The translations under genes and the position numbers were made by a program. Below, piece by piece: positions 56,595 to 57,931 of a stretch of 64,000 bases of DNA (positions are counted from its first letter, which is position 1; every line of letters starts with the position of its first letter). The notes beneath the pieces are model-generated. The model was not told the origin of the DNA. It searched no databases and was given only the letters and a program-made list of their open reading frames with translations. The DNA lies in the NCBI GenBank assembly GCA_037200965.1, contig JBBCGK010000001.1, positions 416,001 through 480,000 on the forward strand, in the 5' to 3' direction. The stretch is from a bacterium. Its GTDB lineage: Bacteria; Patescibacteriota; Minisyncoccia; Phycocordibacterales; Phycocordibacteraceae.

Positions 56595-56903
56595 GTGACT
56601 GATTTTCATCGAAAGCACGGCTACGACGTGGGGACCGGGAACATGGCGGTCATGTCGCTCAGAATTGGACTACTCATAGAAGAACTGGGTGAACTCCACG
56701 CCGTGGTTTCAAAGGGTGTTGGCGACATTTCAGAGGAACACGCAGACCTCTTGTATCTACTTCTTGGAAACTGCGTCACGCTTGGTATTGATATAGAAAC
56801 TGCTTTCTTTGCAAAACATGCCATTAACATGCGGAGGGAAGCCAAGGTAGTGAGGGGGAACCGCCGTGTATCGGATTGGTCCCATGAAAAATCTCAGGAA
56901 TGA
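56595..56903 (+). CDS. small MazG-like nucleoside-triphosphate pyrophosphohydrolase (MazZ-like)
   Basis: GTG start; 102 aa with MazG motifs LIEELGELHAVV and EEHADLLYLLLGNC; 4-bp overlap with the next gene; low GC. Confidence 0.65.
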   Translation: MTDFHRKHGYDVGTGNMAVMSLRIGLLIEELGELHAVVSKGVGDISEEHADLLYLLLGNCVTLGIDIETAFFAKHAINMRREAKVVRGNRRVSDWSHEKSQE

Positions 56904-57931
56904 AAGCTACAGTCATCATCGGTGCGCAGTATGGCAGCGAAGGAAAAGGTAAGATTGCAGCTTATCTTTCAGATGAGTTCGCTCGTGCAGTTCGAACTGG
57001 CGGGCCAAACTCGGGGCATACCGTCGAGCGCAATGGCACGTTCTATCAAGTTCGAGCGGTCCCTAGTGCCTTCGTGAACCAACAATGTCGCCTCGCGATT
57101 GGTGCCGGGGCCATAATAAACACTGCCGTACTATTAGGAGAATTAACGGCATGTGGTATTGTCGAGGGGCGTTTGATAGTTGACCCTCAGGCTGTCATAA
57201 TTGATGAAGAATATCAAAATTCGGAACTAGATTTAATCAGTTCGATTTCGTCCACCGGACAAGGCGTTGGTGCAGCAATCGCAGCTAAGGTCTTACGTCG
57301 GAAAGTAACTCTCGCAAGAGACGTGCCCGAGTTGCGGCCACTGCTTGCCGATGTTGCTGGCACGATCAATTCCGAACTCCAACAAGGCCTAGCTGTAATG
57401 ATTGAGGGGTCGCAAGGATTTTTCTTGAGTTTGCATCATGGTTACTATCCGTTTGTAACAGGCAGGGAAACGACCGCAAGTTCATTTTGCGCCGAAGTAG
57501 GAATCGGTCCCAAAGATGTGGGTCAAGTGATTGGAGTTCTCCGCACCCACCCGATTAGAGTTGGCGGCCCTTCGGGACCTCTTCAAGACGAAATCGATTG
57601 GCAGACCGTCACCGCCGAGTCGGGCTACCCAACACCGCTGTTAGAGATAACTACCGTTACCAAACGAATTCGACGCGTCGGGAGGTTCTCAATGGCCGAA
57701 GCTAAACGATCTTTGATGATCAATTCGGCGACCCAAATTGCTTTAAACTTCGTCGACTACTTGGACCATGCAAACTTTGGACTTAGAAGCTACACCGCAC
57801 TGACTGCTTCAACAAAAAAATTCATCGACGCACTAGAGACACAAACGGGAGTTCCCGTTTCGCTGGTGGGCACGGGGCCCCGTAACAGCGATATGATAGA
57901 CTTACGACGCGAAAAGAACCTCCCCCATTAG
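56900..57931 (+). CDS. short adenylosuccinate-synthetase-family enzyme (PurA-like; candidate PurZ-like 2-aminoadenylosuccinate synthetase)
   Basis: 343 aa. VIIGAQYGSEGKGK (the PurA P-loop GDEGKGK but with Asp->Ser); GGPNSGHTV (GGxNAGHT); IEGSQGFFLSLHHGYYPFVTGRET (GAQG...YPYVTS); ITTVTKRIRRVGRF (TTGRRRR-GW). Confidence 0.6.
   Translation: MKATVIIGAQYGSEGKGKIAAYLSDEFARAVRTGGPNSGHTVERNGTFYQVRAVPSAFVNQQCRLAIGAGAIINTAVLLGELTACGIVEGRLIVDPQAVIIDEEYQNSELDLISSISSTGQGVGAAIAAKVLRRKVTLARDVPELRPLLADVAGTINSELQQGLAVMIEGSQGFFLSLHHGYYPFVTGRETTASSFCAEVGIGPKDVGQVIGVLRTHPIRVGGPSGPLQDEIDWQTVTAESGYPTPLLEITTVTKRIRRVGRFSMAEAKRSLMINSATQIALNFVDYLDHANFGLRSYTALTASTKKFIDALETQTGVPVSLVGTGPRNSDMIDLRREKNLPH

Follow-up and report, generated by a model that had tools for sequence, protein, structure and literature searches.

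A gene near the right-hand end of a 64,000-nucleotide stretch of a Paceibacteria genome (assembly GCA_037200965.1, contig JBBCGK010000001.1, positions 416,001 to 480,000 of the forward strand; this whole stretch is called the window) encodes a homologue of adenylosuccinate synthetase (PurA) that has Ser in place of the Asp of the P-loop motif. The most probable explanation, to which we assign a probability of roughly 0.6, is that the gene encodes an intact Ser-type enzyme of the PurZ group, which originated as cargo of an integrative and conjugative element (ICE), is stranded in the genome of a member of the candidate phyla radiation (CPR) and is not the enzyme for AMP synthesis of its host. 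Natural dZ-DNA, which contains the unusual base 2-aminoadenine (Z) and the synthesis of which is started by PurZ enzymes, has been reported exclusively from phages (PMC13128860, 2026). The gene is located as follows.

56900..57931, + strand: PurZ-like gene (Ser-type, predicted GTP-type adenylosuccinate-synthetase homologue), ATG start, 343 aa, intact.

The encoded protein begins with MKATVIIGAQYGSEGKGK and matches the Pfam family Adenylsucc_synt (7e-59). Its top PDB match in a phmmer search is P. horikoshii PurA (2d7u/5k7x, 235 bits), with which GAQYGSEGKG is aligned column for column to GGQWGDEGKG. A MAFFT alignment places the motif in the identical register with E. coli PurA, P. horikoshii PurA, phiVC8-type PurZ, S-2L PurZ and Ghobes PurZ0. 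Because the two alignments agree, Ser13 occupies the position of Asp13 and Tyr11 the position of the Trp, with no register shift. An earlier note, written from the letters of the window, had claimed both replacements and had named a shifted motif as one way in which the claim could fail; both replacements are borne out by the alignments. Its description of a short archaeal/phage form also holds, in view of the length of 343 aa, the best PDB match (2d7u/5k7x) and the fold. The AlphaFold model (pLDDT 94) superposes on 5k7x with a template-modelling score (TM) of 0.92, and Foldseek ranks P. horikoshii PurA (TM 0.92) first and PurZ0 (7vf6, TM 0.87) directly after it. Among the sequence elements that the same note had listed as intact PurA hallmarks, GGPNSGHT (His40 is E. 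coli (Ec) His41), EGSQG (Gln172 is Ec Gln224) and YPFVTGRE are present, and TTVTKRIRRVGRF is also found. TTVTK, however, is not a generic PurA hallmark: Asp-type PurA has Gly in place of its first Thr (T251), and the loop tip of PurZ reads TTVT. His40, Lys16, Gln172, Arg133 and the R258-R259 pair are conserved, and the C-terminal loop reads G324-T-G-P.

The Ser is a group property. A search of a collection of 5.8 billion proteins returned 2431 relatives at E <= 1e-10, the best 120 of which are 45-61% identical to the protein of the window. Among these 120, 109 carry G-[GA]-Q-x-G-S-E-G-K-G, 8 have Gly for Ser, 2 have G-S-E-A-K-G and 1 is an N-terminally truncated entry without the motif. Signatures were then compared between 177 cellular Ser-type sequences, 7 phage PurZ/PurZ0 sequences and 21 Asp-type sequences (E. 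coli, P. horikoshii, Elusimicrobia and a Bathyarchaeota genome). A first scan for specificity-determining positions was discarded as confounded, since 18 of the 21 Asp-type sequences are from Elusimicrobia; signature positions were kept only where E. coli, P. horikoshii and Elusimicrobia all agree. Position 13 is Ser in 169/177 and Gly in 8/177 cellular sequences, Ser in 7/7 phage sequences and Asp in 21/21 Asp-type sequences. Because the same state is found across the cellular and phage sets, Ser13 is not a chance or sequencing change. Seven signatures (S13, R215, P218-I219, a two-residue insertion at 224-225 (x-Ser), W234, T251 and Y287) are common to all 7 phage sequences and nearly all 177 cellular Ser-type sequences and are absent from all 21 Asp-type sequences, in which position 215 is Lys (21/21) and position 251 is Gly (20/21). 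The PurZ-like protein carries the PurZ-group state at 7/7 of these positions.

The structure of S-2L PurZ explains several of the signatures (PMC8342488). There, the 2-amino group of dGMP is adjoined by Y21-G22-S23, the reactants lie beneath the loop tip T273-T276 (TTVT), and V241 is pushed toward C2´ of the deoxyribose by an insertion that follows it. The aligned counterparts in the PurZ-like protein are Y11-G12-S13, TTVT at 251-254 and an insertion after V221. This check of the dGMP pocket by alignment thus found both the Y-G-S residues and the TTVT tip of S-2L PurZ, and the pocket residues point to a guanine nucleotide, (d)GMP, as the predicted substrate. Asp286 (Ec Asp333) of the donor site is kept in the PurZ-like protein, in 177/177 cellular Ser-type sequences and in PurZ0; the same position is Asn/Gln in ATP-type PurZ (5/7 phage sequences), where the role of these residues, Q308/N297, has been described (PMC8342488). 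Because Asp286 is kept, GTP is predicted to be the phosphoryl donor, as in PurZ0. A neighbour-joining (NJ) tree built from 60 sequences unites every Ser/Gly-type sequence, with phage PurZ and PurZ0 among them, in one clade (96% bootstrap support), outside which lie the Elusimicrobia, Bathyarchaeota and P. horikoshii PurA sequences; the PurZ-like protein does not fall within the actinophage PurZ0 branch. A published survey likewise found Ser in 100% of phage PurZ-group sequences and Asp13 to be 99% conserved in PurA (PMC12884076). Sequence features thus assign the protein to the PurZ group in the broad sense, as supported by Ser13, the pocket and loop features and the tree position, and place it as a predicted Ser-type, GTP-type enzyme between archaeal PurA and phage PurZ0/PurZ.

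PurZ0 is reportedly a GTP-dependent N6-succino-2-amino-2´-deoxyadenylate synthase of Gordonia and Arthrobacter phages. As PurZ0 does, the PurZ-like enzyme would use GTP to phosphorylate a guanine nucleotide at O6; the most likely substrate is dGMP, and GMP is a possible one. L-aspartate would displace the phosphate to yield N6-succino-2-amino-(deoxy)adenylate, and adenylosuccinate lyase (PurB) would convert this product to (d)ZMP. The likeness to PurZ0 (7VF6) extends over the short PurA fold, Ser at Asp13, TTVT, the insertion after R-V, W234, R215 and Y287, as well as the retained donor pocket (Asp286 and G-T-G-P), and 7VF6 is the closest structure that is not a PurA. Unlike PurZ0, to which its identity is 32-35%, the PurZ-like protein is encoded on an ICE-type element and not in a phage. 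The partner genes of PurZ0 are DutZ, DmtZ, DUF5664 and DpoZ-1 (PMC12884076); these are absent here, the neighbours of the PurZ-like gene contain no dUTPase/NDT domains, and a kinase-MazG fusion, an RlmJ-fold protein and a cytochrome P450 (P450) are found instead.

The location of the gene provides the second line of evidence. The PurZ-like gene is part of a short foreign segment with the following features.

56549..56585: left copy of an exact 37-bp direct repeat (AGTTGCACAACCTCCTTTTTACGAACGATCCTGCAGG); host sequence directly left of the insert.
56586..58765, + strand: inserted segment of 2180 bp, 100% identical to an ICE-like element in JBBCBH010010880.1.
56595..56903, + strand: MazG/PRA-PH-like NTP pyrophosphohydrolase domain, 102 aa, remnant of a fusion gene, Pfam PF01503 (1e-6).
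57940..58692, + strand: p250, 250 aa, RlmJ-like Rossmann methyltransferase fold; conserved neighbour of Ser-type PurZ-like genes.
58706..58765, + strand: start of a P450 gene, first 20 codons, the rest missing; MDIGKEPDFASDAYFDNPQQ is the start of the 402-aa P450 of locus L095, after which the sequence diverges.
58765..58801: right copy of the 37-bp direct repeat; its first base is the last base of the insert.

The inserted segment shows 0 mismatches over 2180 bp to positions 8647-10826 of L095, a locus on the 4.0-Mb contig JBBCBH010010880.1 of the same assembly, and the 343-aa and 250-aa proteins of the window are identical to the L095 copies. Its GC content is 48.7%, compared with 57% in the rest of the window, and its boundaries fall at approximately codon 193 of a kinase-MazG fusion gene and at codon 20 of the P450 gene. 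The repeats that enclose it are 100% identical in both a blastn self-match and a string check. RecA of the host shares 83-94% identity with proteins assigned to Candidatus Paceibacterota, the Patescibacteria group or Parcubacteria. A close relative of the host (L185, RecA 94% identical) has the gene order FtsK-RecA-sigma-EF-P-S18-SSB-S6-TatD followed by metG. The similarity of the window to L185 ends at 56518, which is the start of tatD, and everything to the right of tatD is non-syntenic; at the site of the insert L185 carries metG and no PurZ-like gene. Because the 2.2-kb fragment that carries the PurZ-like gene was acquired horizontally and derives from the cargo cassette of an ICE, the gene is clearly accessory. 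Of the native operon the window holds only an internal piece, 2180 bp long, between 37-bp repeats beside tatD and at the edge of a non-syntenic island.

A rival account holds that the insertion is an assembly artefact, in which the 2.2-kb piece was threaded into the CPR contig although its sole true location is the 4-Mb genome or a small circle. We regard this as unlikely. It is favoured by the 100% identity over 2180 bp with another contig of the same assembly, by the location of the insert site approximately 1.5-3.7 kb from the end of its 960-kb contig and by the presence of the right junction in one assembly only; furthermore, 37-bp repeats of host sequence around a gene-internal fragment fit no standard mechanism of transposition or of mobile elements in general. 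The left junction, however, is also present in L001, an older and independent assembly with 2 base differences elsewhere and its end at 58765, and in the Logan unitig L097, in which the last 28 bp of the repeat are joined to the start of the insert. L097 ends exactly at 58765, where the ICE and CPR continuations diverge, as is expected if both contexts are in the reads. We think that the insertion in the Paceibacteria genome is real, with the right junction given by one assembly and the 37-bp duplication unexplained. The arrangement of the repeats may reflect DNA uptake and illegitimate recombination in a Patescibacteria cell, or else a problem of the assembly graph. In the preferred explanation the PurZ-like gene is a very recently acquired passenger, which is probably functionally stranded because the kinase domain and the P450 have been lost.

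What was lost is seen in the intact cassette of L095, which encodes a 297-aa P-loop kinase-MazG fusion, the 343-aa PurZ-like protein, the 250-aa p250 and a 402-aa P450. The cassette is flanked by a gene of the tyrosine integrase family on one side and by a TrwB-type coupling protein, AlpA and Replic_Relax on the other, and a large serine recombinase is located further upstream. Judged by these genes, the host element is of the ICE type or resembles an integrative and mobilisable element (IME), that is, conjugative or mobilisable. The native setting of the enzyme would be a cargo operon of such an element, in the order P-loop nucleotide kinase-MazG fusion, PurZ-like protein, RlmJ-fold protein and P450. 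In the intact operon the MazG domain would supply the monophosphate from a triphosphate, and the kinase would re-phosphorylate a product. The same operon is found with the closest homologues, P0002 (61%) and P0003 (60%), as with the identical ICE copy; a kinase-MazG fusion lies directly upstream of the PurZ-like gene in L092 (P0002), L084/L085 (P0003), L086 (P0013) and L095. The MazG-like neighbour on which the earlier note had relied is therefore present, and a kinase-MazG gene is linked to the PurZ-like gene in relatives, but the copy in the window is a 5´-truncated remnant. Its start is a fortuitous GTG nine bases into the insert, its product matches the fusion protein of L095 exactly over residues ~196-297, and its stop overlaps the start of the PurZ-like gene by 4 nt (ATGA). 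The best PDB match of this remnant is S-2L MazZ (7ody), a weak one (E 0.0026). The metal-binding acids are kept, with IEELGEL/EEHAD aligned on MazZ E34/E35/E38 and E50/D53.

The P450 of the cassette is an ordinary CYP107-like enzyme (TamI 1e-39) and is present in L092, L084 and L095. In 13 distinct loci, one of which lies on the orphan-rich 107-kb contig of P0004, a p250 gene adjoins a PurZ-like gene of the Ser type. The p250 protein shares the Rossmann fold with the RlmJ-family N6-adenine methyltransferases but neither their D-P-P-Y, in place of which it carries an invariant F-x-D-P-D-N-G, nor detectable sequence homology: a p250 profile found nothing among PDB sequences even at E 10, there is no Pfam match, and the fold comparison alone was informative. 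The p250 family comprises at least 1208 proteins, has no Pfam model and also occurs without a PurZ-like gene, beside toxin-antitoxin/abortive-infection genes. Such members without a PurZ-like gene are found at L093 (7001-8565) and L094 (7001-9558); one p250-only locus is an operon with a DUF2726/Zn-ribbon protein near HipA, another lies beside AbiEii and Fic, and the family member P0244 is fused to an Atl1-like alkylated-DNA-binding domain.

Several observations weigh against a stranded PurZ-group enzyme. The protein is 41% identical to P. horikoshii PurA (235 bits), compared with 28-32% for any PurZ, and its score with the NCBIfam archaeal PurA equivalog NF003295 (361.8 bits) is barely below the cut-off of 368. 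With TIGR00184 (purA) it scores 246.6 bits (cut-off 395.6) and with the PurZ model NF038379 219.3 bits (cut-off 300). Arg256 (Ec Arg303), a ligand of the 2´-OH and aspartate, and Val186 are in the PurA state; the Arg256 position is invariant in the Asp-type set only and is R/K/N in the Ser sets. Because these two residues keep the PurA state, the enzyme may prefer either the ribo- or the deoxyribonucleotide. The NJ tree was made by a crude method with few phage sequences, and support within the Ser clade is weak. In MazZ, Asp60 contacts the 2-amino group of guanine (PMC8342488), and in the MazG remnant this Asp is replaced by Gly. Finally, no promoter-like site was found upstream of the truncated operon, and expression in the Paceibacteria host can only be presumed.

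The first of these observations suit a housekeeping (salvage) adenylosuccinate synthetase of the host, which converts IMP to adenylosuccinate and in which Ser is a tolerated replacement of the catalytic base. Its best overall match is archaeal PurA, only 6 bits separate it from the NF003295 cut-off, its GenBank product name is adenylosuccinate synthetase, the PurA-like residues Arg256, His40, Lys16, Gln172 and Asp286 are in place, and the 64-kb window holds no second purA. Nevertheless, this explanation is highly improbable. The Asp13 that it treats as dispensable is invariant in 21/21 Asp-type enzymes and 99% conserved in the survey (PMC12884076). The gene resides on foreign DNA, a 2.2-kb fragment that matches an ICE cassette exactly, at a site where L185 has metG and no such gene. 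A genuine housekeeping short PurA, that of Elusimicrobia, is Asp-type and purB-adjacent, and Ser-type plasmid copies occur in species that also have a canonical purA. The archaeal short PurA (2D7U/5K7X; NF003295) is like the PurZ-like protein in identity (41%), fold (TM 0.92), length and GTP-type donor site, but differs by Asp13 to Ser, Gly to Thr251, Lys to Arg215, the loop insertion and Trp234; the PurZ-like gene also lacks a purB partner and is foreign DNA in its host. The proposal of the earlier note that the enzyme is of the PurZ type rather than a housekeeping PurA thus stands in part: the signatures, the NJ clade and the context agree with it, whereas the score below the PurZ cut-off, the retained Asp286 and the missing phage Z-cluster do not.

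The last point bears on a further explanation, namely that the region is a prophage or phage remnant whose PurZ and MazZ replace A by 2-aminoadenine in the phage's own DNA. A PurZ-group enzyme that adjoins a MazG-type domain with S-2L MazZ as its best PDB match would be expected of such a cluster, the PurZ-like protein matches phrog_1211 of PHROG (6e-72), and its relative P0004 is encoded on an orphan-rich, co-directional, phage-like 107-kb contig. PHROG scans of that contig were uninformative, and it was not called a phage. The surroundings are different from those of a Z-genome phage: there is no DatZ match and no purB-like match in the 64-kb window, and neither a DNA polymerase nor a phage structural gene among the genes scanned around the insert (51.4-63.3 kb). 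The element that holds the complete cassette encodes a relaxase, AlpA, a coupling protein and a serine recombinase and is therefore ICE/IME-like and not a phage, and its kinase, RlmJ-fold protein and P450 are partners that are unknown in Z-genome phages. The best viral relative in IMG/VR is 45-46% identical, and none of 80 IMG/VR viral loci carries p250 or this MazG type within 6 kb; these two profiles alone define the viral-locus negatives, as phmmer with single DatZ/MazZ sequences is too insensitive to establish absence. The donor site is also GTP-type and not of the dATP/ATP-consuming type. Compared with the ATP/dATP-dependent PurZ enzymes (phiVC8 DgsS 6FM1; S-2L 7ODX), the PurZ-like protein shares the Y-G-S pocket, the other six signatures and the association with a MazG-type (d)NTP pyrophosphohydrolase. 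It differs by Asp286 for Asn/Gln, by Val186 for the Cys of PurZ, by a score of 219 bits that is below 300, by the lack of a DatZ or polymerase partner in the window and scanned genes and by its non-viral context. A phage-type Z-genome cluster therefore appears quite unlikely, and an ICE-derived enzyme remains the preferred explanation. The MazG remnant shares the metal-binding acids with MazZ but not Asp60.

The wider family is consistent with a cellular and mobile distribution of the enzyme. At least 595 stretches encode a relative, among at least 600 matching ones with one genome per species, and some Asp-type copies are included in this number. Partner genes were counted in the 80 best loci of the genome scan. 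All 18 Asp-type loci, each from Elusimicrobia, have purB within ~90 bp, which is the housekeeping case, and the Ser-type copies are never in that arrangement, although some Ser-type cassettes carry a purB of their own (L048, L050, L079 and L084). The Ser-type partners are DUF7002 (31 loci), a dCTP-deaminase-fold protein (27 loci), an IrrE/CapP-like peptidase fused to a DarG-like macro domain (19 loci; CapP 5e-18) and a deoxynucleoside kinase of the dNK type (15 loci), and further MazG-type proteins, p250 and an N-terminal P-loop kinase fusion. The closest PADLOC match of the kinase fusion domain is the kinase part of a defensive dCTP deaminase (dCTPase 8e-6). Ser-type plasmid copies occur in Rhizobium, Agrobacterium, Sinorhizobium, Burkholderia and Ralstonia. 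In S. meliloti the Ser-type copy is on a plasmid and canonical purA is on the chromosome of another strain; the genera Agrobacterium and Burkholderia presumably also carry canonical purA. Matches on E. coli 'plasmids' were rejected as accessory Ser-type copies, as they represent canonical purA on mislabelled chromosomes.

These partners suggest another role for the same chemistry, that of an anti-phage or anti-plasmid effector that, on infection, would drain (d)G nucleotides or produce toxic nucleotides, either of the Z type or modified further. The dCTPase-related kinase is fused to sister subfamilies, which are paired with DUF7002, the dCTP-deaminase-fold protein, dNK and IrrE/CapP-macro, in an architecture of kinase and nucleotide-modifying enzyme like that of the defensive kinase-dCTP deaminase. 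Two plasmid copies lie in defence-island settings: on A. fabrum pAt1D132a a kinase-PurZ and DUF7002 pair is 3.3 kb from Gabija (GajB 8e-181), and on a B. thailandensis plasmid such a pair is located beside PDC-S02 (2.7e-134), integrases and a transposase. Expression of a phage Z-cluster is toxic to E. coli (PMC8342488), and the cassette of the window is mobile-element cargo. On the other hand, neither the PurZ-like protein nor p250, the MazG domain or DUF7002 is represented by a PADLOC model, so that no known defence system was assigned, and no literature was found in support. The defence association comes from other subfamilies, while that of the window has a P450 and an RlmJ-fold protein, which are atypical for defence; relative to the kinase-dCTP deaminase the catalytic domain is another one, the window copy is without the kinase domain, and no defence phenotype is known. 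A defence role for the cassette is thus doubtful, though it has more in its favour than either of the two explanations weighed just above. Two recurrent arrangements were observed in the sister subfamilies. Modules of two or three genes that combine IrrE/CapP-macro, kinase-PurZ and DUF7002 (L014, L037, L039, L052, L055, L183, L184 and others) are a candidate for an uncharacterised defence system. In other loci (L002, L003, L012, L016, L031, L038, L063, L065 and others) the PurZ-like protein is paired with a ~334-aa dCTP-deaminase-fold protein that has a C-terminal transmembrane/coiled-coil tail, often together with a dNK-type deoxynucleoside kinase.

The P450 and the methyltransferase-fold protein downstream of the PurZ-like gene would instead suit a cassette that makes a modified purine nucleoside or nucleotide as a small molecule, for example a methylated and oxidised derivative of 2,6-diaminopurine, comparable to the use of ToyG/ToyF in the biosynthesis of toyocamycin. 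Related cassettes carry a carbamoyltransferase, a PfkB kinase and a dNK kinase (L086) or purB (L084), and a 7-deazapurine nucleoside cluster employs short PurA homologues. ToyG-type homologues are like the PurZ-like protein in that a short PurA paralogue serves a non-standard purine nucleotide; their system has a dedicated PurB and is plasmid-encoded. However, the short PurA homologue of a toyocamycin/sangivamycin-type cluster on an R. leguminosarum plasmid is Asp-type, with 0/7 of the Ser-clade signatures and a predicted substrate without a 2-amino group, and falls outside the Ser clade. The cassette itself comprises four genes on mobile elements, with no conserved transporter, resistance or further tailoring genes, which makes a small-molecule product unlikely. 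Since recruitment of a short PurA to another pathway brings no Ser by itself, the ToyG-like case agrees with the view that the signatures are tied to a 2-amino substrate. The cluster in question (L181; OyaliB plasmid p3, 200096-217091) is a complete 7-deazapurine nucleoside cluster on a conjugative plasmid, with folE, the short Asp-type purA-like gene, purB, queE, an IMPDH/GMP-reductase-like gene, a nitrile hydratase subunit, queC, a HAD phosphatase, a phosphoribosyltransferase and queD. The purA-like/folE pairing was also seen on at least 7 other R. leguminosarum plasmids.

To the right of the insert, two further genes of mobile-element type were observed.

58870..59418, + strand: serine-recombinase C-terminal remnant, 182 aa; PHROG phrog_95 (integrase), positions 459-549 of 651, E 3.7e-4.
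59402..60715, + strand: TraD/VirD4/HerA-like P-loop ATPase, 437 aa; Pfam TrwB_AAD_bind, DUF87.

The first has no Pfam match and is a remnant of an older mobile element beside the insertion. The second matches PADLOC mad8 (1e-16) and, with the C-terminal half only, phrog_5156 (2.7e-46, positions 402-771 of 824), and is therefore a mobile-element remnant as well. An origin of this island from the same element family as the ICE was considered and rejected, as the only similarity is a weak one between coupling proteins (29% identity). The non-syntenic region from 60851 to 63332 and beyond (L096 15506-16411) encodes a cyanophycin-synthetase-like ATP-grasp ligase (334 aa), a small His/Pro/Asn/Tyr-rich secreted protein, an S1/P1 nuclease and an Endonuclease_NS nuclease; these genes at the contig end may form a set for scavenging nucleic acids. 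To the left of the insert, two genes without family matches (51409-52149, 246 aa; 53809-54360, 183 aa) break the RecA-sigma-EF-P-S18 order relative to L185, and a 30-bp perfect inverted self-match at 53758-53787, directly after the EF-P gene, is probably a terminator hairpin. The rRNA genes of the window, both on the - strand and ~14 kb apart, contain insertions typical of CPR bacteria. The 16S gene (17773-20084) is split by a ~730-bp insertion into matches at 17773-18828 and 19562-20084, and the 23S gene (33882-38226) spans 4345 bp with a group I intron at 34304-34520.

The kind of enzyme is known, whereas there appears to be no earlier account of its lineage outside phages, of its partner genes or of the defence-island setting. 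In the survey cited above, from 2026, the PurZ group has four archaeal Ser/Gly sequences in the basal position, from a sampling of at most two prokaryotic sequences per phylum (PMC12884076). The literature found on PurZ, PurZ0, MazZ, DatZ, DutZ, DmtZ, DUF550 and DUF5664 concerns phages only. Neither the cellular clade of Ser-type enzymes nor its partner genes were found to be described, with the proviso that Tong et al. 2023, on PurZ0, may hold relevant statements, and no relevant literature was found on DUF7002, on a PurA-like protein with defence or on adenylosuccinate with dCTP deaminase and defence.

The cassette may serve to provide Z-nucleotides for DNA modification, to defend by nucleotide depletion or poisoning, or to make a modified nucleoside; these candidates all share the proposed core chemistry. 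One tentative proposal, less probable as a whole than the stranded PurZ-group enzyme itself, joins three elements. Ser-type enzymes would form the catalytic core of a large group of plasmid, ICE and defence-island modules in bacteria and some archaea that convert (d)GMP to 2-aminoadenine-type nucleotides, taking this chemistry beyond phages; the purpose would be to starve or poison the replication of invading DNA or to modify the element's own DNA; and the window would show a fragment of such a module just after its transfer from the 4-Mb bacterium into a Patescibacteria cell.

A PurZ enzyme lineage is thus abundant outside phages and has conserved partner genes that are not those of phages. 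This cellular Ser-type lineage is annotated everywhere as "adenylosuccinate synthetase", and the seven positions that separate it from true PurA provide a simple rule by which the annotations can be corrected. The 100% identical fragment represents a rare, datable case in which a CPR cell received DNA of a larger bacterium. Should Z-type nucleotides prove to be made or consumed by the cellular modules, these would constitute a new class of nucleotide-based conflict systems and a new source of enzymes for Z-DNA.

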